This document shows positions 4,279-51,085 of a stretch of 64,000 nucleotides of DNA, piece by piece; position 1 is the first letter of the stretch, and every line of letters begins with the position of its first letter. Source of the DNA: Candidatus Moranbacteria bacterium GW2011_GWE2_35_2- (GTDB taxonomy: Bacteria; Patescibacteriota; Minisyncoccia; Moranbacterales; UBA9337); NCBI GenBank assembly GCA_000990585.1, contig LBQD01000001.1, positions 141,501-205,500 on the forward strand, in the 5' to 3' direction. A program made the position numbers and the translations under genes. Under the pieces are notes generated by a model that ran no database searches, was not told the DNA's origin, and saw nothing but the letters and a program-made list of their open reading frames with translations.

Positions 4279-5544
4279 ATGGAACAAAATAACACGCAAA
4301 ACTTGCAGGAAAAAAGAAAAATCTTCGGCTTATATGCCCGAAGTTTTTTCGTTTTCATTTTGTTGATTTTAAGTTTTTGGTTTGGATTGGAAAAAGGGAA
4401 ACAGGAATCATATTCATTTTCAGCGGAAAAAATTCCACTGGAAGAGTCTATTCTAATTAATAAGGAGGGTGGGAAAGATAATGCAGTGGATTTTTCCTTG
4501 TTCTGGGATGTGTGGGAATTACTTAAAGATAAATATGTTGACGTGAAAGATTTGAAGACGCAAGACTTGATATATGGTGCGATAAACGGAATGCTTTCGG
4601 CGACCGGAGATCCGTATACGATTTTTCTCAATCCTGAAGAAAATAAGCAATTCAATGAAGATATAGAAGGAATGTTCGAAGGTATTGGCGCCGAATTGGG
4701 AGTTCGGGAAGGAGTTTTAACTGTGATTGCTCCATTGGAGAATTCTCCGTCGGAAAAAGCGGGGCTTCGAGCCGGGGATAAAATTATTAAGATTGACGGA
4801 GAAGACGCTGTGGAAATGACAATTAATGAAGCAGTGAAGAAAATTCGTGGTTCAAAGGGAAGTGAAGTAAAACTTACAATATTTCGCAGCGGGGAAACAG
4901 GAGAGACAAAAGAAATTTTGATTGTTCGCGACACTATAAATGTAGATAGCGTGAAATTTGAAGAGAAAGAAAATAACATTTTCTACATTAGTGTGAGTCT
5001 TTTCGGAGATTCGACAATTCGAGAATTTCACAGTGCGATCAGAAATATTCCATCTCAAACACAAGGTTTAATTATTGATTTGCGGAACAATCCGGGAGGG
5101 TTTTTGGATGCTGCGGTGGAAATGTCCAGTCGAGCTTTGTTGAAAGGAAAAATAGTCGTTATTGAGGAAAATTCTCAAGGAAAACGAAAAGAATTGCTCA
5201 GTACCGGAGGAGATGCTTTGAGCAAGATTAAGACTGTAATTTTGATTAATGAGGGAAGCGCCAGTGCGTCGGAAATTATGGCGGGAGCACTCAGAGAAAA
5301 TCGCGATAATGTGACATTGGTTGGAAAAAAATCTTTTGGAAAAGGGTCTGTTCAAGAATTGGTTTCTTTGTCAGAAAACAGTGCTGTGAAAATCACTGTC
5401 GCCAAATGGCTCACGCCGAAAGGAAATCAAATCAATAATGAAGGAATTACTCCGGATGTGGAAGTTGATTTCACAGATGACGATTGGAATAATAATCGCG
5501 ATCCGCAACTAGATAAAGCAATTGAAATCTTGCAACAATCTTAA
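4279..5544 (+). CDS. ctpA: Carboxyl-terminal processing protease (S41 family, CtpA-like) with PDZ domain
   Basis: PDZ segment GIGAELGVREGVLTVIAPLENSPSEKAGLRAGDKIIKIDGE. S41 catalytic region NPGGFLDAAVEMSS...SASASEIMAGAL. Confidence 0.85.
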   Translation: MEQNNTQNLQEKRKIFGLYARSFFVFILLILSFWFGLEKGKQESYSFSAEKIPLEESILINKEGGKDNAVDFSLFWDVWELLKDKYVDVKDLKTQDLIYGAINGMLSATGDPYTIFLNPEENKQFNEDIEGMFEGIGAELGVREGVLTVIAPLENSPSEKAGLRAGDKIIKIDGEDAVEMTINEAVKKIRGSKGSEVKLTIFRSGETGETKEILIVRDTINVDSVKFEEKENNIFYISVSLFGDSTIREFHSAIRNIPSQTQGLIIDLRNNPGGFLDAAVEMSSRALLKGKIVVIEENSQGKRKELLSTGGDALSKIKTVILINEGSASASEIMAGALRENRDNVTLVGKKSFGKGSVQELVSLSENSAVKITVAKWLTPKGNQINNEGITPDVEVDFTDDDWNNNRDPQLDKAIEILQQS

Positions 5545-5566
5545 AAAAAAGCACCTATTTTATTTT

Positions 5567-5593
5567 GTCATTCCTGTGAAGGCAGGGAAGATC
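5567..5593. repeat. Degenerate copy of the dispersed CATTCC(C/T)G...GGGAATG hairpin repeat, sitting just after the ctpA stop
   Basis: GTCATTCCTGTGAAGGCAGGGAAGATC resembles the reverse complement of the copies at 1185 and 7454, with three transitions. A stem-loop can still form. It may act as a terminator. Confidence 0.45.
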
Positions 5594-5629
5594 TATATGT
5601 GATCAATATATAATAGAATTAAGTTAATC

Positions 5630-7126
5630 TTAATACATCAATACTGCTACCGGTTGCATTTTGACTACTGATTTTATGATTTTATTTTCTTCCATTCCGG
5701 AAATCACTTCCTCAATATCTTTGTAATAGGAGCTGTCTTGTAAGACTACTCCTTTGGAAGCGGCGTTGTATAATTTGACATGACGTTTTTCCATTTTTTC
5801 AAACAATTCTTTCTTATTATGCGCGGCATCTTCTTGGCTTTCGGCGCGTTTTCCTGTTCCGTGGCTTGCTGAAAAAAAGGATGAATCATTTTCATCCGTT
5901 CCGACTCCCAAATAGGCAGGAGTACTCATTGAAGATGGAATGAAAACCGGCTCTCCGGTTTGGGAAAACAGAGGATGATTTTTCATTCTTTGCGGACCAT
6001 CGGCGCTCACAGTTCCATTGCGATGCACCCAAACATCTTCGCCAAAATGATTCTCCTTCCGGTTGAAAATATGCGGAGTATCATAGAGTAAATCTAATTC
6101 AACTTGTCTTCCGAAAACTCTTTCCAAAGCGCGATCCAAATTGTCAGTTAGAACTGCCCGGTTGGCAAATCCGAAATTAGCACTGGCTTGGTGGGCAGTG
6201 AGATACATTTTTCCTTCCAGGCTGTCCGCTTCATAGCCCAAAAATTCATCAGAGTTTTGATATTTTTTTATTTTTTCGGCGATATTTTTGTATACTTGTT
6301 TTTTCTGGCTGTCGAAAAATGTTGTTCCGATTTTGAGCATCATTTTTTGACTGAAATGTTCTTTGGTTTTTGGTGTATACATATATGACGCGTATTGTCC
6401 GAAAAGTCCCGAGCCGGTGTGCATCAGAAAAATATATTGTCCGACTTTGAGATTAAACTTTTCCGCAATTTCATTGTCCTTGATTTCCGTTATTTTCATC
6501 AGATCCAAAAAGTGATTTCCGGCCGCTCCCAAAATTCCGAGACGATATTTTCCCACGTGAAAAAAGAATTTCGGAATCGCATCAAAAATATCCCGCTGGC
6601 TGATTTCTTCCGGAACCATATTTCCATTCATTGAGGAATTTTCCAATTCATTTTTTGTGCGACTTTTCAGGTGAGAAAGCAACGGGTCGATTCCTTTATG
6701 GGCAATGTCGACTGCCAATTGGTATGGAATTTTATTGCCGACATATTTTTTTGTCGGAATAACTTCGATCAATTCTTTGAAAAGTTCGTCGATTTTTTCT
6801 TCTGTCAGATTTTGGTCATTCAAATCGGTACGCAAAAAACGCATTCCGCAATTAGGGGCGGTATCGTTGATTTGGGGAAAAAGATGCGTTTTGCTTGCCA
6901 CGATTGTTCCGGTTGGATTTTTGCGTCCCGCCTTGGGATGCACGTCGCTCATCGCGGCGATATGGGAAAAAAGACGCTTGTCTTTTCCGAGGTTTTCCAG
7001 TTGGTCGAAGGTGTGCTGGTTGGGCAAAAGAGCATCCGAAGTGTGAAAAATCACCGGAACACTCATTTCCTTGGTTTGAAATTGCTGAAGATGCAGGTTT
7101 ATTTTTTTTGTTTTAGGTATTGACAT
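5630..7126 (-). CDS. rtcB: RtcB-family RNA 3'-phosphate ligase
   Basis: RtcB motifs in order: MSDVHPKAG (DxH metal site), PNCGMRF, GAAGNHFLDL, HTGSGLFG. The C-terminal PSSMSTPAYLGVGT...SASHGTGK matches the RtcB PGSMGT..Y..GT...S..HGAGR block. Confidence 0.8.
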   Translation of the reverse strand: MSIPKTKKINLHLQQFQTKEMSVPVIFHTSDALLPNQHTFDQLENLGKDKRLFSHIAAMSDVHPKAGRKNPTGTIVASKTHLFPQINDTAPNCGMRFLRTDLNDQNLTEEKIDELFKELIEVIPTKKYVGNKIPYQLAVDIAHKGIDPLLSHLKSRTKNELENSSMNGNMVPEEISQRDIFDAIPKFFFHVGKYRLGILGAAGNHFLDLMKITEIKDNEIAEKFNLKVGQYIFLMHTGSGLFGQYASYMYTPKTKEHFSQKMMLKIGTTFFDSQKKQVYKNIAEKIKKYQNSDEFLGYEADSLEGKMYLTAHQASANFGFANRAVLTDNLDRALERVFGRQVELDLLYDTPHIFNRKENHFGEDVWVHRNGTVSADGPQRMKNHPLFSQTGEPVFIPSSMSTPAYLGVGTDENDSSFFSASHGTGKRAESQEDAAHNKKELFEKMEKRHVKLYNAASKGVVLQDSSYYKDIEEVISGMEENKIIKSVVKMQPVAVLMY

Positions 7127-7248
7127 AAAATTATTTATGTAGTATTATATTGAGTTAATAGTAGTTATTTTGAAAATTTGATATATAAATTGAGGAATAG
7201 TTTGCTTCGTCGCAGATTCCTCGCAAAGACGTTTCAGGGGGTTGCACT

Positions 7249-7479
7249 ATGAAATATGATACCACAATCGAGCCGGGAACGGAAGTTTTTCTGGCTAATA
7301 AAATCATAAGGACAAGGAGGCGCTTTTTTGTCTTAGAGGACAATGGAGAGGTGCTTCTCGTACTTAAAGTTTATGGAAAACCTAATTTTGCTAAGCATCC
7401 AAAATATGGATATCCGGTTGCAATTTGTGACAAGGTAATGTTTCGATCAATTTCTGGATTCCCGCCTTCGCGGGAATGA
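7249..7479 (+). CDS. Small hypothetical protein. Its last ~8 codons and stop are supplied by a hairpin repeat copy.
   Basis: AGGGGG RBS 7 nt upstream of the ATG. The C-terminal ...SGFPPSRE comes from the repeat GGATTCCCGCCTTCGCGGGAATGAC. Confidence 0.4.
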   Translation: MKYDTTIEPGTEVFLANKIIRTRRRFFVLEDNGEVLLVLKVYGKPNFAKHPKYGYPVAICDKVMFRSISGFPPSRE

Positions 7480-7480
7480 C
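7454..7480. repeat. Dispersed palindromic hairpin repeat (CATTCCCGC-loop-GCGGGAATG family), copy 2
   Basis: CTGGATTCCCGCCTTCGCGGGAATGAC: a 9-bp perfect stem around a 4-nt loop. Same family as 1185..1210. Confidence 0.6.
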
Positions 7481-7829
7481 AAAAGAAAAAAAAGGGGGGG
7501 ATATGAAGAAGAAGATTTGTTTTTTGGTTTTAGGGTTGTTGCTTCTGGTTTGCATTCTTGGGAATGCAGGCGTGTTTTTTTCTGAGAAAAAACAACTACT
7601 CCGATTGAGTGAGGAAGTCGTCGCGATTTTTGTGGCATTTCCCGATGGCGAAATTATTTTAAAGCGCAATATTGGGAGTTTCCGGAGTTTATCTCCGGAT
7701 GATATCGCCTTGATTCCGGCAAAAAACGAGGATATTTCGGCGAAGTTTGTGGGGTTTTTTAGAATATCATCAATGGGGTTTGGATATGATATTCTGACGC
7801 CGGTAGCAGAAGGAGAGGAAACTTTATGA
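7476..7829 (+). CDS. Small secreted/membrane-anchored hypothetical protein. The likely start is MKKKICFLV at ~7503.
   Basis: N-terminal hydrophobic signal-like segment. Tandem with the neighbouring small ORFs. Confidence 0.35.
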   Translation: MTKEKKGGDMKKKICFLVLGLLLLVCILGNAGVFFSEKKQLLRLSEEVVAIFVAFPDGEIILKRNIGSFRSLSPDDIALIPAKNEDISAKFVGFFRISSMGFGYDILTPVAEGEETL

Positions 7830-8222: not shown

Positions 8223-9376
8223 ATTTTCTCGTAAATCTCCGCGTATTGTTTTGAAACATTTTTAATGTCAAAGTTTTGCTCGACATACTTTCTGGCGCTG
8301 ATGCCGAGTTTTTTTCTTTTTTCCGGATTATCGTGCAAATCTAAAATCGCAGCGGTGAGTTGCTCGACATTTCCGGCTTCGATTCGCACCGAATTTTCTT
8401 TGTTGGAAAATTCCTCAAGAATCGGAATGTTGGAAATTATCACCGGCTTGGCGCACGCCATCGCTTCCACCACCACCAACGGCACATCGAATTTACCGCG
8501 CATATTTTGTACCGGAAAAATCGAAATATCCGCCATATTATAAATATCCGCCATATTGAATTTCCCGTCGTCATGAAAAACAACTTTTTCCAAAAGGTTG
8601 TTTTTCATTAATTTTTCAACAACCTTATTTTTATTATCAGCATCTTTTTTGTTTTTCACCCGCACCGCCATCGACAATTTTGCCGTCGGAATTTTTCCGG
8701 ATACTTTGATAAAAGCTTCCACAACGTCATCCATCGCTCCCAGGCGCGTGTATTCTCCGGCAAAATTGATCACAAAATCATTCAAAGCGTAATTTTCGTT
8801 TTTCACTCTTGTTTCTTTTGGGGAATAATTTTCCAAATCTATTCCCGGATAAATCCTCTCGACGTTTTTAATTCCCAATGAGAGTAATTTTTCCTTGGCG
8901 AAATCGGAATAAGTAATAATCAAATCTCCAAACATCAAATTTTTCAATTCTTCATCTGAAAATAAATCTTGTCGCAACGTGGCAACGGTCTGAATTGATT
9001 GGATATCTGTCATCCCGGAATTTTTTCCGAAAAATATCCGGGATCCAGAAATATTAAGTACAACTCTCATCATCCCCGTATTGAATTTAGTCGGAGTAAA
9101 AAGCAAGTGTAAGATATCAAATTTATACGCATTTAAAATTAAAAACCAAAATAACCGCAATTTCTGAAAAAATCCGAAATCATTTTGCGAATGAGTATAT
9201 ATCTTTTCCTGAATAACGGAACTTGGCAATTCATCAACTTGTCCGTTAGTCATCAAGTGGAGCTCCAAATTTTTGTTATCACTCAAATCTTTCGCCAAGG
9301 TAAAGGCGAAATTTTTCGACGCTTCATCCCACGGCGGAGCGATGGGGCGGGTAATAAGAAGTATTTTTTTAGTCAT
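8219..9376 (-). CDS. Glycosyltransferase family 1
   Basis: C-terminal PLVVVEAMACAKPVIISNIPILEEF, the GT1 EX7E-type region. Contains an 18-bp in-frame tandem duplication (NMADIY repeated). Confidence 0.7.
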   Translation of the reverse strand: MTKKILLITRPIAPPWDEASKNFAFTLAKDLSDNKNLELHLMTNGQVDELPSSVIQEKIYTHSQNDFGFFQKLRLFWFLILNAYKFDILHLLFTPTKFNTGMMRVVLNISGSRIFFGKNSGMTDIQSIQTVATLRQDLFSDEELKNLMFGDLIITYSDFAKEKLLSLGIKNVERIYPGIDLENYSPKETRVKNENYALNDFVINFAGEYTRLGAMDDVVEAFIKVSGKIPTAKLSMAVRVKNKKDADNKNKVVEKLMKNNLLEKVVFHDDGKFNMADIYNMADISIFPVQNMRGKFDVPLVVVEAMACAKPVIISNIPILEEFSNKENSVRIEAGNVEQLTAAILDLHDNPEKRKKLGISARKYVEQNFDIKNVSKQYAEIYEKI

Positions 9377-11498: not shown

Positions 11499-11589
11499 GC
11501 CCAGGTGATGGAATTGGTAAACATAACTAGCTCTTTGGGCTAGTGGGCAGGTAATGCCCCTGTAAGTTCGAATCTTGCCTTGGGCGCCA
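11499..11589 (+). tRNA. tRNA with a long variable arm (type II; Leu/Ser/Tyr class) and encoded CCA. The anticodon is unresolved because the anticodon loop is non-canonical.
   Basis: Acceptor GCCCAGG/CTTGGGC, D-arm ATG-GAATTGGTAAA-CAT, T-arm GTAAG-TTCGAAT-CTTGC, variable arm GGGCA-GGTAA-TGCCC, discriminator G, then CCA. The anticodon stem-loop ACTAGC-TCTTTGG-GCTAGT has C at position 33, or must be read as a 9-nt loop. Confidence 0.5.
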
Positions 11590-11784: not shown

Positions 11785-12330
11785 ATGCAACGAAGAATTT
11801 TTGTGGGCATTAATTTGCCTTCTCAAGTAAAAAAACGCTTGGCGGAAAAAATCAAGAAATGGAATGATTTGCCAATTAAATGGATTAAGGAAGATAATTT
11901 TCATATCACACTTTCTTTTTTGGGTTATCTGGAAGATGAAGATTTGAGTCGAATTTGCACGAGTGTGCGAGAAGCGACTGAAAATATCGAATCTTTTGAT
12001 ATTGAACTTAATAAAATTGAGCTCGGTCCGACTAAAGGAAAAGATGCCCGGCTTGTTTGGTTTTCCGGCAAAGCAAGCGAGGAGCTGAAAAAACTTCAGG
12101 AGGAAATTGAAAAATCTTTCGGATCATTCAATATTGATAAGAAAGAATTTCATCCGCACGTAACACTTGGAAGAATCCGCAAAAACAAATGGCAAATTCT
12201 GGATTCTTTTCCTGAAGTTGAAGAAAATTTCAGAATATCTTTGCCTGTTGACAGTGTGAGTATTTTTGACAGCCGATCAGAAGAAACCGCAGGGGAATTC
12301 ATCGAGATTGAATCTTGTCCGTTGAAATAA
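11785..12330 (+). CDS. ligT: 2'-5' RNA ligase / 2H phosphoesterase (LigT/ThpR family)
   Basis: Two H-x-T-x motifs, HITLSFLG and HPHVTLGRI, about 85 residues apart. Length 181 aa. Confidence 0.8.
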   Translation: MQRRIFVGINLPSQVKKRLAEKIKKWNDLPIKWIKEDNFHITLSFLGYLEDEDLSRICTSVREATENIESFDIELNKIELGPTKGKDARLVWFSGKASEELKKLQEEIEKSFGSFNIDKKEFHPHVTLGRIRKNKWQILDSFPEVEENFRISLPVDSVSIFDSRSEETAGEFIEIESCPLK

Positions 12331-46962: not shown

Positions 46963-47232
46963 ATGCATATGGAAACAATAATGAAAGCGGACATTTTTTT
47001 CTTCATTTCTTCCGTTTCGTTGGTAATTTTAACGATATTATTTTGTATTATCTTGTTTTATCTCATCAAAGCCGGAAGAAATCTTTATTTGATTTCAGAA
47101 AAAATGCAACAACATTTCAAAAGCTCGGAAGAATTCGTTTTTGAACTCAAAGAAAGACTCGAAGAAAATATACTTTTCCGATTATTCTTTCCTCCTTCAA
47201 GAAGACATAAACGTTCTTCGAGAAAAAATTAA
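46963..47232 (+). CDS. Hypothetical small membrane protein
   Basis: One TM helix, followed by a terminator-like hairpin. No motif. Confidence 0.3.
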   Translation: MHMETIMKADIFFFISSVSLVILTILFCIILFYLIKAGRNLYLISEKMQQHFKSSEEFVFELKERLEENILFRLFFPPSRRHKRSSRKN

Positions 47233-47249: not shown

Positions 47250-47283
47250 AAAACAGCCTTCTTTCTGAGAGAGGCTGTTTTTT
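47250..47283. terminator. Rho-independent terminator (plus strand; possibly bidirectional for tyrS)
   Basis: AACAGCCTTCTTTCTGAGAGAGGCTGTTTTTT. Confidence 0.55.
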
Positions 47284-47287
47284 ACTT

Positions 47288-47352
47288 GGCACGCCACAGT
47301 AAAGGACGTTAGAACTATTTTTATGAATAATAAGGATTACATCTATATTCCT
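47288..47352. repeat. Copy A of a ~65-bp direct repeat (core GCACGCCACAGTAAAGGACGTTAGAAC ... ATCTATATTC). It flanks the tyrS / rSAM / small-ORF block.
   Basis: Aligns to 49933..49997 with about 80% identity over the whole length. The 27-nt core differs by one base. Confidence 0.55.
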
Positions 47353-47393
47353 GATTTGAGAGAAACTTGCGATAATATTTCATGCTAACTTAT

Positions 47394-48362
47394 TTATTTT
47401 TTCTCGAATAACTTAACTGCCTTTTCTCTACCATGATAAATCGATACTATTTCTAATGCTAATTTCTTTTTGATTTCATACGGATCCGCAATCTTATTTT
47501 CTAATTTTGTTCTTATGTCAATAATTTCTTTCATTGGTAAATAAGTGCAATCTACAAAAAGTTGATAGATGTTCTCATCTGCTTGGTTCATAATACCTTT
47601 AAACATTTCTTCTGCAGAAAAATCAAGAAATACTCCTGTTCCCATTGACTTGGACATCATTTTTTCTTTAGTTATTGGATTTTCAAGTAAGGTTGTTATA
47701 AAGACAAATTTTTCCTTATTTCTATATTTACCTTGCAAATCCCTGCCTACAAGAGCATTAAATTTTTGATCGTTTCCGCACATCTCAACATCAACATCTA
47801 TCTCAACGGAATCCCAGCCTTGCATTATGGGATAAAAAAGTTCGTGAAGATATATGGGCTTTTCTTCATGTATGCGCTTTTCAAACATATCCCTCTCCAA
47901 CATTTGCTGAACAGTGAAATTACCTGCTAATTCAAGAGCTTTTTTATTATCCATTTTCGAAAACCAATCGTGATTATACATTATCTTAACTGGATTTTCT
48001 CTATTATCCAGATTTATAATCGGCCTTATTTGATCTAACCATGTCTTTGTATTTTCTACAACATCCTTTCTTGTTAATTTTTTTCGGGTAGCCGTTTTAT
48101 CAGTAGGATCACCAATACGCGAAGTAAAGTCACCTATTAAAAAAATTACTTCGTGACCAAGTTGACGGAATTTTTCAAGAATCATGTAGTTTGTTGCGTG
48201 ACCAAGATGCAAAGATGTTCCTGTTGCATCTGTGCCGATATATATCCTTAATCTATCTCCAGAAAGCATTTTCTGCTTTAATTTTTCTTTACTTGGAAGA
48301 ATTTCTGCAACTGAGCGTGTTAATAACTCATCTATTTTATTTTTATTGATAATAACATCCAT
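47394..48362 (-). CDS. tyrS: Tyrosyl-tRNA synthetase-like class I aaRS (short form, no S4 domain; TyrS/TrpS subfamily)
   Basis: IGTDATGTSLHLGH...LIGDFTSRIGDPTDK matches the TyrS HIGH region and GDP motif. KMMSKSMG (KMSKS). Confidence 0.6.
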   Translation of the reverse strand: MDVIINKNKIDELLTRSVAEILPSKEKLKQKMLSGDRLRIYIGTDATGTSLHLGHATNYMILEKFRQLGHEVIFLIGDFTSRIGDPTDKTATRKKLTRKDVVENTKTWLDQIRPIINLDNRENPVKIMYNHDWFSKMDNKKALELAGNFTVQQMLERDMFEKRIHEEKPIYLHELFYPIMQGWDSVEIDVDVEMCGNDQKFNALVGRDLQGKYRNKEKFVFITTLLENPITKEKMMSKSMGTGVFLDFSAEEMFKGIMNQADENIYQLFVDCTYLPMKEIIDIRTKLENKIADPYEIKKKLALEIVSIYHGREKAVKLFEKK

Positions 48363-48459
48363 ATTTTGAGATATTTTAAAATAAGTAGTCCTTAGTAGTT
48401 TATCAAAAAAACAATACTCTGTAAATAATTATACAGAGTATTAGTTGGAATAGTTAAGC

Positions 48460-49503
48460 TCATATCGAGCACTCAGTCTCTACATGGTCCCTGTCAACAA
48501 ACACCTTGTAGTATGCATCACTGGATATCCTCTTAAATCGGCAGTAATCTTTAAGCTTCTCTTCACGACTTAAAACTCTATCACACTGCCAATACCACTT
48601 TGTGTGGCTACACACATCTTGCCATGGACATTCGGTTTGTGGACAAGTCAAAGGCTGATAACTTACGGTATGCACGCCCTTGATAACCTCCTCTATTTTA
48701 TTTCCAAGATTGTCTTGCGATAAATTATAAGAATTCTCCAAATTCAGCTCAAACAGATATGGGTCATCCCCTCCATATGCATATTCTGGGATTATGCTTG
48801 AAAATAGATTAAGCGGAGTCACTGATCCAAAATCATGAACCACGTCATAGAGAACTTTTTGTAAATCCATCCATTCATTCTCTGTCGGTCTTTGATATGA
48901 ATCGTAATTGATTTCACAAATTAATGGAATGTAACCTAGCTCATCCAAGAACCAAGCACAGATATCGTAAAGATTCCTGAAAGCTTTCGTGGGAATCACG
49001 CAAACGCCTGCTCTGATTGGAAACTTATCAGTGTTATATTCCTTTATTAGATGTACGATTCGTTTTGGGTTAGGAGCTCCCGAATCAGGAAAAATTGGAT
49101 TCTCCACAGATACAAAAGCATGACTGATAGCACTATTTTGCGCTGCTAAAACCCAGCTTTTGTTCATTGCTTTTCCAGCAGTTAGGATAAATGGCCTGAC
49201 ATTTGTAATGCTAAACCCTTTATTTGCCAACTTAAACAGTCTCTCTCCGAGAACCATTGGCTCTCCGCCTGAAAATCTATAGGAAAGTTTTCCATCAACA
49301 TATTCATTGCACAGTTTTATAAATCTCATATATATATCAAACTGGCTATCTGATATATCATAAGCAAATTTCTGTCTAGAACGAGACTTAAAATAATGAC
49401 AATAAGTGCAGTTACAATTACACCTCCCTGTAACACCCACGCTAACAGTATAGATTTTTTTTCTGATGTTTTTTTCTGATACACATTGCCCTAAGTCTTT
49501 CAT
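48460..49503 (-). CDS. Radical SAM enzyme with a C-terminal SPASM/twitch-like Cys-rich auxiliary-cluster domain (peptide-modifying maturase-like)
   Basis: GRCNCNCTYC (CxxxCxxC) at residues ~27-36. GGEP motif. At least seven further Cys in the C-terminal third (LTCPQTECPWQDVCSHTKWYWQCD ... C). GGAGG RBS. Confidence 0.75.
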   Translation of the reverse strand: MKDLGQCVSEKNIRKKIYTVSVGVTGRCNCNCTYCHYFKSRSRQKFAYDISDSQFDIYMRFIKLCNEYVDGKLSYRFSGGEPMVLGERLFKLANKGFSITNVRPFILTAGKAMNKSWVLAAQNSAISHAFVSVENPIFPDSGAPNPKRIVHLIKEYNTDKFPIRAGVCVIPTKAFRNLYDICAWFLDELGYIPLICEINYDSYQRPTENEWMDLQKVLYDVVHDFGSVTPLNLFSSIIPEYAYGGDDPYLFELNLENSYNLSQDNLGNKIEEVIKGVHTVSYQPLTCPQTECPWQDVCSHTKWYWQCDRVLSREEKLKDYCRFKRISSDAYYKVFVDRDHVETECSI

Positions 49504-49524
49504 TTTTTACCTCCATATAAAATC

Positions 49525-49558
49525 AGGGGGATACCTTTAAGACATAAGGCATCCCCCT
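49525..49558 (-). promoter_or_regulatory. Strong hairpin between the small ORF and the rSAM gene. Candidate attenuator or partial terminator.
   Basis: AGGGGGATACCTT-loop-AAGGCATCCCCCT: a 13-bp stem with one mismatch. It is followed on the minus strand by a U-rich stretch and then the rSAM RBS. Confidence 0.5.
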
Positions 49559-49588
49559 ATCTGGGTTAAAGGAAAAGGAATTTGTCGC

Positions 49589-49711
49589 CTATGGCCGCAT
49601 ATCCGTGGAATAAGCGATAGTCTTGGAGACATTGTCTCTTTTTTGCGCAGAAACTTGTGCCATCTTCTGTCGAACACGATCCGCTTTGGAAAGAACAACT
49701 TTTTTCTTCAT
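49589..49711 (-). CDS. 40-aa small ORF immediately upstream of the rSAM/SPASM gene. Candidate precursor peptide, or alternatively a truncated S20-like fragment. Not in the ORF track because it is under 60 aa.
   Basis: ATG with an AGAGG RBS 8 nt upstream. Hand translation: MKKKVVLSKADRVRQKMAQVSAQKRDNVSKTIAYSTDMRP. Confidence 0.4.
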   Translation of the reverse strand: MKKKVVLSKADRVRQKMAQVSAQKRDNVSKTIAYSTDMRP

Positions 49712-49932
49712 GACACACCTCTTTTTTGAGTGTTTCTAGCTCTAAAGCGAGCCAGTAATACACGAACTGAAACTAATATCAGCTCGTAGCTAAATTTAAA
49801 CTATCATCAAATTAAAAAATTGTCAATTAACCAGATATTAAATACTAATCTGAACTACAATCCCCTCTAACTAAAATTCCGGATTCATAAGTCATATAAA
49901 AAACAAGGCTCAAAAAAGCCTCGAATTTCATA

Positions 49933-49997
49933 AGCACGCCACAGTAAAGAACGTTAGAACCTTTTTTATAAAGAAAAATGAAATAATCTATATTCTA
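49933..49997. repeat. Copy B of the ~65-bp direct repeat, upstream (minus sense) of the small ORF / rSAM operon
   Basis: GCACGCCACAGTAAAGAACGTTAGAACC...ATCTATATTCT. Pairs with 47288..47352. Confidence 0.55.
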
Positions 49998-50046
49998 AGT
50001 TTATCTGCCGGAGAGGCAGGCCTTTCCATTACAGCATCAGATTTGG

Positions 50047-50931
50047 TTAATTAACCTTATTAATCCAAGCTTTAATCTTCTTTTCTAATTCCTTTGCAAA
50101 GCCTTGGAAATTATGAGGAGTACCTTTCAGGGTAAATATTTCAGCATTTTTTCCTTCAAGCTCTCTGGTGAACCATTCAGCTATTTTAGAAATTTCCCTG
50201 TCTTTATAATCGTCTTCCTCTGCAAGAACGATAAGCAAGGGTAATTTCACACTTTTCAATATTTTCGGACTCTTCTCTGAAGCATAACTGAAAATCTCCT
50301 CAACACTTTCTGGCGTAAAAAGACTAAGAAATCTTTGCGCATCAATAAGATAATGCCATATTTTTTTTGGCAAAAATACATCTCCCTTGCCATCCTTAAC
50401 CATTTTTTTAGCAAATCTTACAGCCTTGTTATAAATCTTCCTATCAGTAAAGGCATACGTATCAGCAAAATCACTCATGGGGGCCAAAAGAATTGCGCTT
50501 TTTATGTTTTTATTTTTCCTTTTGGAAAGATAATAGACGCTTTTCTGGGTTCCCGTAGAATGACCAATGAGAAGAATATTTTTACTACCCAATGATTCAA
50601 CAAATCTAACAGCACCATCAATATCATCAACACAATCAGTAAAAACCTCTTTAGCCATTCCAATCAAATGTTTTTTTCTTCCACTTTTTTCTTTTTTATC
50701 CACCTGGCTAATTCTGGAAAGAACACCACTACCCCTATTATTAAAAAGTAAAACGGAGTTGTTCTTATCAACCAACCTTTCTGCAAGTTCTGCTTGTGAA
50801 AATAAATTACTCCCAAGACCATGAATAAATATGATTACATTTTTAGCCTTAGGTGAACCAAAAAATATTCCATCTAAAAGAAATTTTTTGGGGGTTTGAA
50901 TTTTAACAATTTTTCCTTCCATATGCCTCAA
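50047..50931 (-). CDS. Alpha/beta hydrolase fold protein (esterase/lipase-like)
   Basis: HGLGSN oxyanion-hole region and the nucleophile elbow GHSTG. Confidence 0.7.
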   Translation of the reverse strand: MRHMEGKIVKIQTPKKFLLDGIFFGSPKAKNVIIFIHGLGSNLFSQAELAERLVDKNNSVLLFNNRGSGVLSRISQVDKKEKSGRKKHLIGMAKEVFTDCVDDIDGAVRFVESLGSKNILLIGHSTGTQKSVYYLSKRKNKNIKSAILLAPMSDFADTYAFTDRKIYNKAVRFAKKMVKDGKGDVFLPKKIWHYLIDAQRFLSLFTPESVEEIFSYASEKSPKILKSVKLPLLIVLAEEDDYKDREISKIAEWFTRELEGKNAEIFTLKGTPHNFQGFAKELEKKIKAWINKVN

Positions 50932-51014
50932 ATTACCAATATTTAATGATTTATTAAATATTAAAACTAAAAAGAGGCTTTTGCAAGCCTCAAATTTAGT
51001 TCGATTCTATTCAG

Positions 51015-51085
51015 CACGGGTGGAGAGAATCGAACTCCCGTTATTGGTTTTGGAGACCAACGTACTACCACTGTACGACACCCGC
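51015..51085 (-). tRNA. tRNA-Trp (anticodon CCA)
   Basis: Minus-strand cloverleaf: acceptor GCGGGTG, D-arm GTAC-AGTGGTA-GTAC, anticodon arm TTGGT-CTCCAAA-ACCAA, T-arm GGGAG-TTCGATT-CTCTC. Confidence 0.8.

Follow-up and report, generated by a model that had tools for sequence, protein, structure and literature searches.

The window analysed here, a stretch of 64 000 nt from the genome of ‘Candidatus Moranbacteria bacterium GW2011_GWE2_35_2-’ (contig LBQD01000001.1, positions 141 501 to 205 500), harbours two co-oriented copies of a ~67 nt element on either side of a block encoding a small peptide, a radical S-adenosylmethionine (rSAM) enzyme and a short tyrosyl-tRNA synthetase (TyrRS). These repeats are probably att-type junctions of gene cassettes integrated in tandem at the tRNA-Trp gene by site-specific recombination. 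The element belongs to a family with a constant position and orientation relative to genes and shares its terminal motif and a downstream arm with tRNA-Trp, the cargo next to tRNA-Trp varies between genomes, and the cassettes are shuffled between close relatives. In the window, the array comprises two cassettes, i.e. a hydrolase cassette followed by the peptide–rSAM–TyrRS cassette, and is fixed in the species.

A family of elements at the 3′ ends of genes

The pair was the sole direct-repeat family reported by a repeat search of the window, with 62 nt copies at 47289–47350 and 49934–49995 (+) that are 82 % identical and have a spacing of 2645 nt. The 27 nt core, GCACGCCACAGTAAAG(G/A)ACGTTAGAAC, occurs exactly twice in the window with up to three mismatches allowed and was not found in 100 shuffles; profiles built from 3, 8 and 34 family members detected no third copy there, the next best match having an E value of ~0.7. 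As the preliminary description of this DNA had stated, the copies share their orientation, differ by a single mismatch in the core and both carry the ATCTATATTC tail, and they flank exactly the small open reading frame (ORF; 49589–49711), the rSAM gene (48460–49503) and the TyrRS gene (47394–48362). Their conserved extent is slightly longer than the ~65 bp given there, i.e. ~67 nt at 47286–47352 and 49931–49997, or 47283–47363 and 49928–50008 with the widest profile.

To place the pair in a wider context, we compared the window with related contigs, labelled L001–L042. The exact core had no match in the species representatives of GTDB and one in the JGI metagenomes, i.e. contig L001, with the same anatomy as the window (gene, element, terminator). 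The contigs encoding the closest rSAM and TyrRS homologues (L002–L004) contributed several diverged copies. A degenerate core pattern made from the columns invariant in eight copies, for which about one chance match was estimated, matched 20 GTDB species representatives, of which nine are titled Moraniibacteriota or Moranbacteria and most others are candidate phyla radiation (CPR) or unclassified metagenome-assembled genomes; viral contigs gave no match. Searches with nhmmer yielded 43 matches representing 34 distinct copies, with further copies in L034–L040, so that the family totals ~40 distinct copies in ~30 CPR contigs, mostly labelled Moranbacteria. The consensus on the gene strand reads tttAaaTc.GGAATaTaaAtatatTC.TT.tT.TtcatAAAaAtAGTTCTAACgTCCTTtACtAc.cCGTGC, after which come an A-run, a hairpin and a T-run. 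The element is ~67 nt long and free of indels over this length in nearly all copies, reaches up to ~130–180 nt together with its flanking arm, and ends in CGTGC in most copies, a few diverged ones being one base off. We consider the family previously undescribed in Moranbacteria; the literature on integrons and attC sites in Patescibacteria, Moranbacteria repeats, CPR tRNA islands, Parcubacteria integrases and TyrRS with rSAM peptides contained no earlier description that we could find.

The position of the element is strikingly constant. Wherever a neighbour could be called (32/32 copies), the element comes after the stop codon of a gene in the same orientation, with a gap of 18–350 nt in all but one case (median ~55 nt), and a terminator-like hairpin lies within 60 nt past the CGTGC end in 27 of 36 distinct copies, as compared to 3.7 % of random windows. 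The earlier suggestion of a shared promoter or leader motif defining a regulon is not borne out, since all 32 elements come after a gene, in the interval from its stop codon to the terminator, and no gene lies downstream on the strand carrying the promoter-like hexamers. Many copies beside unrelated genes, which had been proposed as the sign of a generic promoter, are indeed found across genomes; they are located at 3′ ends, however, and delimit exchangeable units, so that a generic promoter can be dismissed. We also rejected a sigma-54 promoter (TGGCACG-N4-TTGC), since most copies are devoid of the GG and of the −12 GC, and extracytoplasmic function (ECF)-type and T-box readings were ruled out by position and motif.

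The main rival to cassette junctions builds on this same position, i.e. the element would be a 3′-end regulatory module, spread by homologous recombination, and any shuffling a by-product of exchange between its dispersed copies. Read on the gene strand, it would be a 3′-untranslated region (UTR) element ahead of the terminator, acting as a protein-binding platform or giving rise to a 3′-UTR-derived small RNA; read on the other one, it would function as an antisense promoter (TTTATG/TTGAGA-N17-18-TATATT), with an operator of 27 nt upstream, and silence the adjacent accessory gene. An element that always lies between stop codon and terminator must be co-transcribed with the upstream gene, and promoter-like hexamers at a fixed spacing are conserved on the opposite strand. 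This is countered by the lack of covariation and of a stable conserved fold among the copies, and by several copies with changes that would disable the −10 hexamer, e.g. TATATC or TTTATT.

Regarding structure, mutual information gave no Watson–Crick covariation among the 34 distinct copies. Both copies of the window, folded as single strands on either strand, had z values of −0.4 to −3.7, the strong values coming mainly from the adjacent terminator hairpins. Rfam 15 returned nothing relevant at gathering or permissive thresholds: only tRNAs reach the gathering score in the window, and the only permissive match overlapping either copy (sau-19 at 49899–49937, 21 bits versus a gathering score of 80, E=1.8) spans the terminator hairpin together with 7 nt of copy 2. 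Because strong sequence conservation comes without structural covariation, the alignment points to a protein-recognised site and not to a folded RNA. The element contains an internal palindrome, GGAATAT-N4-ATATTCC. Its reading as a dif/Xer site was considered and set aside, as there is no GC-skew switch at the locus and the mapped junctions lie at the other end of the element.

The anatomy of the family also bears on the idea that the 2.65 kb block alone was inserted or duplicated once, leaving the two repeats as attL and attR scars. Two co-oriented copies do flank exactly this block, and the window of 64 kb holds no other. In L034, L036 and L037, by contrast, the block carries a single element, at its 3′ end, and the upstream copy belongs to the preceding cassette (NUDIX in L002, MT201 in L036 and L037). 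Copy 2 lies 50 nt past the hydrolase stop codon, just as other family members sit after their own gene, and the block is not duplicated in the window. A single insertion is contradicted by this family-wide anatomy and we give it hardly any credence. Of the initial proposal of a cassette with att-like scars, the cassette and the att-like nature of the repeats are supported; the copies are not two scars of one insertion, each being the 3′ boundary of its own cassette.

Junctions at tRNA-Trp and cassette exchange between relatives

At nine loci (the window, L001, L009, L011, L013, L014, L023, L036 and L037), a tRNA-Trp gene directly precedes the first gene or genes bounded by an element. All these tRNA genes are intact according to ARAGORN and Rfam, and all have CCCGTGC at their 3′ end, the same motif that ends the elements. 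The region upstream of tRNA-Trp is conserved, with tRNA-Thr, tRNA-Tyr, tRNA-Thr and rpmG, and further out the genes for S2, EF-Ts, a PSP1 protein and a TPR protein. Downstream, the first gene is different at each locus (L036 and L037 being taken together), i.e. the hydrolase in the window, a different rSAM in L001, an APH gene in L009, unrelated ORFans in L011, L013 and L023, ORF144, ORF437 and NUDIX in L014, and MT201 in L036/L037. The proximal boundary of the array in the window is thus not an edge of the block delimited initially, it is the tRNA-Trp 3′ end (51014–51020, CCCGTGC), which has the same terminal motif as the elements.

In L036 and L037, an arm of ~112 nt (AAATAAAATGAAAATACCC...CCTAGCTAAATA, with a terminator inside) follows directly past the CCCGTGC of the tRNA. 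The same arm is found past the ...YGTGC ends of the elements of the MT201 cassette and the TyrRS cassette in L037, as well as of element e3 in L002, and in the alignment the homology starts exactly at the shared motif (C)C(C/T)GTGC. Since arm homology begins exactly at the motif common to tRNA and elements, the alignment indicates that either the tRNA 3′ end or the element end can form the left side of one and the same junction.

The locus has several features of tRNA-integrative elements: the site is a tRNA 3′ end and the gene is left intact, in nine genomes; a direct repeat of the tRNA 3′ end, i.e. 5–7 nt of (C)(C)CGTGC, stands at the distal boundary; and gene content is polymorphic between genomes, with breakpoints at the elements, while being uniform within the species of the window. 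An integrase gene next to the att site is lacking, and no cassette of those screened encodes a recombinase. A longer distal copy of the genome’s own tRNA-Trp 3′ end, ending a GC-rich module, is present in L001 (15/16 nt) and L023 (21/21 nt); the window has no such long copy, only the 5 nt match CGTGC.

These modules are a separate observation. They span 150–190 nt in otherwise AT-rich genomes (L023 1438–1595 and 144–300; L016 1287–1443, 2525–2686 and 2711–2819; variants at ~2310–2500 in L001, ~7320–7455 in L003 and ~1111–1277 in L018), are absent from the window and lie after elements or after tRNA-Trp. Each starts with an inverted tRNA-Trp T-arm and finishes with a direct copy of the genome’s own tRNA-Trp 3′ end; the fold is stable on either strand (z=−3.3 and −3.7) and has no Rfam match. 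As for the element itself, we do not claim that its core derives from the 3′ half of tRNA-Trp, the similarity being weak (mean local score 13.9 versus 10.7±1.1 for shuffled sequences); a score of 17.3 was reached for L036/L037 only.

Further evidence is given by comparing L002, L003 and L004, which are 98–99.7 % identical block by block and differ in block order. With e standing for an element, L002 reads e / A (TPP_N, TPP_C, MT274, 364 aa) e / B (rSAM428) C (MT201) e / D (NUDIX) e / E (peptide, rSAM, TyrRS) / Ddl-like gene, and L003 reads B C e / X (SDH protease, 69 aa) e / A e / D e / E. Hence L003 has an extra cassette compared with L002, and the block ends fall in elements. Cassette D starts past the YGTGC motif in three different contexts, and the order MT201–E–NUDIX in L037 stands against MT201–NUDIX–E in L002. 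The clearest junction is e1, ahead of A, where the element belongs to an unrelated upstream gene in L002 and to X in L003: the two elements have seven differences, the last one 6 nt before the end, and the contigs are identical everywhere downstream of it. On the basis of these sequences, the exchange point would lie within CGTGC and, at most, a few A/T shared next to it, and the flanking identity appears too short for ordinary (RecA-type) homologous recombination.

This junction weighs on the regulatory module introduced above, as an exchange within the last 5 nt of the repeat leaves too little identity for a RecA-type event. Such a module also leaves unexplained why tRNA-Trp carries the same heptamer, joined to the same downstream arm exactly there, and why the first gene past tRNA-Trp differs in nine genomes. 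In its favour, a mosaic element suggests gene conversion between copies, and the array is stable within the species. Altogether, we regard a regulatory module as unlikely; if it were nonetheless true, the element would be a signal at 3′ ends controlling accessory genes, conserved to an unusual degree and new to the group as well.

A selfish, non-autonomous mobile element has to be weighed as well, i.e. a derivative resembling a miniature inverted-repeat transposable element (MITE) or one of a single-strand transposon of the IS200/IS605 type, which would insert on its own at CGTGC next to hairpins and carry no genes, these being reordered later by recombination between copies. A short conserved unit found many times per genome region, with hairpins and a fixed pentanucleotide at one end, would fit, and in IS200/IS605 elements the target and cleavage sites involve hairpins and a short fixed motif, to which the CGTGC end may be likened. 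The internal palindrome, too, is in line with it, as is the presence in L035 of an element and two ORFs where L002 has 45 nt. Against it, neither terminal inverted repeats nor target-site duplications were seen, no clean ‘empty site’ was found (the same two genes adjacent with and without just the element), the hairpin sequences vary, and Pfam detected no Y1/HUH transposase in any locus studied. Moreover, homologous cargo (NUDIX, MT201, Fic and the peptide–rSAM–TyrRS unit) moves with its own element into different contexts. We therefore judge a selfish element quite improbable. The difference between L035 and L002 lies after the Ddl-like gene, at 9144–10882 in L035 (the element and ORFs of 167 and 279 aa) and in the 45 nt spacer at 12261–12305 in L002; no second junction motif is visible there, and it could represent either an insertion or a deletion.

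The arms past the junctions are of two types. About 9 of 37 distinct copies have the core repeated in inverted form (GGGAAGTTAGAACT) at +41 to +45, immediately beyond the hairpin, compared with a background of 0.03 per 110 nt; an inverted tRNA T-arm (GAGAATCGAAC) is found downstream instead in 6 of 41 element matches and past three of seven tRNA-Trp genes. Their hybrid combinations look like the products of attP×attB recombination. Where the inverted core is present, the site folds as single-stranded DNA (ssDNA) over ~95 nt, with a 9 bp helix (AGTTCTAAC/GTTAGAACT), a short helix, a 2 nt bulge, an 8 bp helix and a terminal hairpin; in L019, these are 9 bp, 4 bp, the 2 nt bulge, 8 bp and the hairpin. 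Variants in L012, L020, L025 and L002 break pairs of the site without compensation, and the second (inverted) arm is absent or decayed in most copies, including both of the window.

Under the cassette reading, a unit would consist, in gene direction, of a terminator hairpin, its own promoter, the cargo gene or genes and the element ending in CGTGC, with units arranged head to tail downstream of tRNA-Trp and each element forming the 3′ end of its own cassette of 1–4 genes. As a circle, the cassette would carry an attP-like site, in which the element is the P arm, CGTGC the crossover core and the terminator-containing arm P′. The circle would integrate either at the tRNA-Trp 3′ end (CCCGTGC) or at the CGTGC end of a resident element, and repeated integration would build up the order tRNA / cassette–element / cassette–element and so forth. 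Each inserted cassette would provide the preceding unit with a new terminator and leave an element with CGTGC distally for the next event. We infer that the junctions were made by a recombinase with its crossover in CGTGC and that this enzyme is supplied in trans; it may be a tyrosine integrase with duplex DNA as its substrate or an HUH/Y1 enzyme that cuts on the 5′ side of the hairpin, or it may act on folded single strands in the manner of integrons. Integration of this kind would account for the fixed orientation, for the terminators past the elements, for gene content that varies beside tRNA-Trp, for the shared junction and for the hybrid arms.

Several observations speak against integrated cassettes and keep our confidence in check. 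No integrase, transposase or recombinase was found in the window (Pfam on 10 size-appropriate ORFs, and the gene tables for ~20 kb around the locus), and no recombinase recurs in the related loci (Pfam, 138 ORFs). Array and neighbourhood are identical in all of the 24 contigs with this exact TyrRS gene that were read, and in base composition the array does not stand out from its flanks; hence, there is no sign of recent mobility in the window. Past the tRNA, the window and L011 have an inverted T-arm and not a cassette-type arm, which a simple attL model does not predict, and the TyrRS of the second cassette is perhaps the organism’s only one, which would be odd cargo for a mobile cassette. 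One element of L004 (positions 1–34) looks like a mosaic of two others, as from homologous recombination or gene conversion. Elsewhere, the junctions include a half-site in L003 (2353–2419) and a collapsed element after TyrRS in L002; the crossover is narrowly delimited at only a few junctions, the others being ambiguous because of the conserved core. The synteny comparison proposed at the outset thus had a divided outcome, with breaks between species and none among the 24 contigs of the window’s own species, in which the two-cassette array is old and fixed.

It is tempting to go one step further and to propose, tentatively and with less confidence than the att-type junctions themselves, a new gene-capture platform in Moranbacteria that would be integron-like in function and different in build. 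The tRNA-Trp 3′ end would serve as landing site, equivalent to attI, for mini-cassettes bearing terminators and promoters, via a site of ~67–130 nt with its crossover in CGTGC and a dedicated recombinase encoded elsewhere, and the platform may be a main exchange route for accessory and defence-type genes in these reduced, symbiotic bacteria. The genomes of CPR/Patescibacteria are very small and contain few recognisable mobile elements, and few routes are known by which these bacteria acquire genes. A lineage-wide cassette system at one tRNA gene would provide a searchable marker, i.e. an element that profiles can find, for a flexible gene pool including Fic, NUDIX, Schlafen-like, methyltransferase and ribosomally synthesized and post-translationally modified peptide (RiPP)-type genes as well as many ORFans, and would pose the question of which enzyme recognises a site so conserved across many species.

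The array of the window and its cargo

The hydrolase, peptide, rSAM and TyrRS genes as well as tRNA-Trp and rpmG are all on the minus strand, and are transcribed in the order rpmG, tRNA-Trp, hydrolase, copy 2, hairpin, 40 aa ORF, hairpin, rSAM, TyrRS, copy 1 and terminator, followed by a convergent ORF of 89 aa. The features are, in this order:

51279–51118 (−): rpmG
51014–51085 (−): tRNA-Trp(CCA), proximal anchor of the array; its last 7 nt (51020–51014) are CCCGTGC
50998–51013 (−): inverted copy of the tRNA-Trp T-arm, TGAATAGAATCGAACT
50974–50991 (−): terminator-like hairpin past tRNA-Trp and ahead of the hydrolase cassette, GAGGCTTGCAAAAGCCTC
50047–50931 (−): cargo of cassette 1, alpha/beta hydrolase (DUF1749/Hydrolase_4), 294 aa
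50004–50020 (no strand assigned): small hairpin between the hydrolase stop codon and copy 2
49931–49997 (−): element copy 2, 3′ boundary of the hydrolase cassette, starting 50 nt past the hydrolase stop codon and ending in ...GTTCTAACGTTCTTTACTGTGGCGTGC
49904–49923 (−): intrinsic-terminator-like hairpin, CGAGGCTTTTTTGAGCCTTG then TTTTTT, directly past the CGTGC end of copy 2
49589–49711 (−): cargo of cassette 2, 40 aa precursor-like peptide with a conserved C-terminal [I/L]AYSTD core
49559–49524: strong hairpin of 14 bp past the 40 aa ORF
48460–49503 (−): cargo of cassette 2, radical SAM enzyme, 347 aa, with a CX3CX2C motif and weak peptide-maturase-type matches
47394–48362 (−): cargo of cassette 2, short TyrRS, 322 aa
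47286–47352 (−): element copy 1, 3′ boundary of the peptide–rSAM–TyrRS cassette, starting 42 nt past the TyrRS stop codon; AGGAATATAGATG...ATAGTTCTAACGTCCTTTACTGTGGCGTGC on the minus (gene) strand
47257–47285 (no strand assigned): bidirectional terminator-like hairpin, from folding, directly past the CGTGC end of copy 1

The hairpins noted beside each copy are real; they had been placed ahead of the copies, whereas in gene direction each follows its element (49923–49904 and 47285–47257). The one at 49904–49923 would be the first feature of the next cassette. The stem at 47257–47285 is imperfect and misses the strict criteria of the family-wide hairpin count, and it also serves the convergent ORF at 46963–47232 (+). 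The arms past the three CGTGC junctions of the window have diverged from one another. At tRNA-Trp, the T-arm (51021–51036) and its inverted copy (50998–51013) form 16 nt arms that are 88 % complementary, with the 7 nt CCCGTGC between them, and L011 shows the same arrangement.

The small hairpin at 50004–50020 is of a type (TCTGCC...GGCAGA) that recurs between stop codon and element in a sub-family (L013, L019, L017 at ~7765–7795 and L015 at ~4670–4700), with stems that vary between copies and pairing that is kept by compensatory changes. A leader of ~110 nt (49712–49830, −) with small hairpins lies between a TTGACA promoter-like hexamer and the start codon of the peptide, in a block that is ~88 % identical between the window and L002.

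Across the family, cassettes measure 1–3.4 kb and contain 1–4 genes with their own promoter and terminator. More than half of the ~30 genes ahead of elements have no Pfam match; the remainder include three Fic/DOC proteins, NUDIX, an APH-type kinase, DUF2326, Schlafen/AlbA_2, FecR, methyltransferases, a 291 aa sigma-70-type (alternative) sigma factor, a C39 peptidase, an SDH-type protease and radical SAM enzymes. This cargo is of accessory type and has the profile of a flexible gene pool. Arrays can be dense, with four elements within 8 kb in L017, four in L002 and two each in L012, L015, L016 and L022. None of the cassettes encodes a recombinase (Pfam, ~30 cassette genes plus the 138 ORFs of related loci).

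The TyrRS of the window matches the bacterial tyrS model (TIGR00234) over positions 4–311 of 406 only and lacks the C-terminal S4-like tRNA-binding domain that is present in all CPR homologues of ~400 aa. HIGH and KMSKS are kept, and MQGWD replaces the MQGYD of the full-length CPR enzymes; the closest relatives (287–337 aa) share the missing domain and MQGWD. In Bacillus stearothermophilus, a TyrRS truncated in this way reportedly still forms Tyr-AMP and does not charge tRNA, which, by analogy, makes a full-length tyrS copy elsewhere in the genome plausible. In the preliminary description, the gene was a putative second aaRS gene, possibly of the self-resistance kind. A second TyrRS was found neither in the 64 kb window nor, via cluster accessions, among nine NCBI candidates, none of which could be tied to the assembly. 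The exact TyrRS sequence has been deposited from the Rifle ‘Candidatus Moranbacteria bacterium GW2011_GWE2_35’ genomes.

A more distant relative, L028, has a full-length TyrRS beside a homologous peptide–rSAM pair, and L041 and L042 have the rSAM–peptide pair without a TyrRS neighbour. The peptide core [I/L]AYSTD is conserved throughout (window 49589–49711, −; L002 from 8694; L028 9816–9950; L041 3817–3969). For annotation, the cassette reading would explain why the TyrRS/rSAM/peptide unit occurs in differing neighbourhoods of related genomes, and the two repeats should not be taken as a private pair of insertion scars.

Two side observations concern single genes. In L034 (GCA_040769235.1), positions 5168–7641 are homologous to the peptide–rSAM–TyrRS region, with 88–94 % nucleotide identity; the short TyrRS and the element are kept, the gene table lists only small ORFs at the position of the rSAM gene, and this gene may have decayed. 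In the window, ARAGORN calls a 91 nt tRNA-Lys(UUU) at 11499–11589 (+), directly upstream of tRNA-Ala. This tRNA-Lys is absent from the Rfam tRNA matches at gathering score; it could be unusual, for instance by containing an intron, or the call could be false.

Comparison with known systems

Short conserved intergenic repeats are familiar from families such as REP (repetitive extragenic palindromic)/BIME (bacterial interspersed mosaic elements), ERIC (enterobacterial repetitive intergenic consensus), the Neisseria Correia elements and the Rickettsia palindromic elements. Like these, the element described here is short, conserved, lineage-specific and located by terminators. In contrast to them, it is strictly oriented to the upstream gene and linked to tRNA-Trp and to swappable units, has no terminal inverted repeats and is non-palindromic over most of its length.

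Closer parallels are found in tandem islands at tRNA-type genes. In Dehalococcoides, islands are arranged in tandem at the tmRNA gene ssrA, with a 20 bp repeat and a 15 bp conserved motif (PMC3146451), and cis-mobilizable elements (CIMEs) without integrase are formed by accretion (PMC5704250). As in such islands, a variable region directly downstream of a tRNA-type gene differs in cargo between strains, and it is built of tandem units that are each bounded by a short repeat of the 3′ end of that gene. A further conserved motif just upstream of the repeat measures 15 bp in Dehalococcoides and ~60 nt in the Moranbacteria element, and in both cases certain units encode no integrase and would need one supplied in trans. 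By contrast, the units in Moranbacteria are small (1–3.4 kb with 1–4 genes, versus islands of 10–30 kb with an integration module), no integrase was found near the arrays, and the repeat common with the tRNA is only 5–7 nt long. Furthermore, the ~60 nt arm is kept across many species representatives, and each unit has a terminator first and its own promoter.

Integron cassettes carry attC sites with the consensus RYYYAAC / GTTRRRY, i.e. imperfect palindromes that fold as ssDNA (R box, unpaired spacer, L box with extrahelical bases and variable tip) and have the cassette boundary at G/TT; clusters of attC sites without an integrase are known as CALINs. The Moranbacteria arrays are alike in their co-oriented, mostly ORFan or accessory genes, each with a conserved recombination-type site within tens of nucleotides. 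The motifs GTTCTAAC ... GTTAGAAC match the two consensus cores at 6/7 positions each: the proximal (G)TTCTAAC is nearly invariant, and the distal motif is limited to about 9 of the 37 distinct copies, where it lies at +41 to +45 counted from CGTGC, neither copy of the window having a convincing one. About one-quarter of the sites fold as ssDNA over the whole ~95 nt stretch.

In other respects, the two systems differ. The junctions in Moranbacteria map to CGTGC, at the foot of and before the central hairpin, instead of G/TT of the distal core, the palindrome appears not to be maintained, ~35 further conserved nt lie upstream of the first core, and in L036, L037 and L002 the conserved arm extends ~45 nt beyond the GTTAGAA-like motif. 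The array starts at tRNA-Trp, its cassettes have their own promoters and terminators, and neither IntI nor attI was found by the arrays, with no tyrosine recombinase among the ORFs tested in the window, the gene tables of L006/L029 or the 138 ORFs of related loci. Considering the uncompensated variants, the mostly absent second arm, the junction at CGTGC and the lack of IntI nearby, we do not assign the sites to attC. By analogy, it is in what it does for its array that the Moranbacteria site resembles attC.

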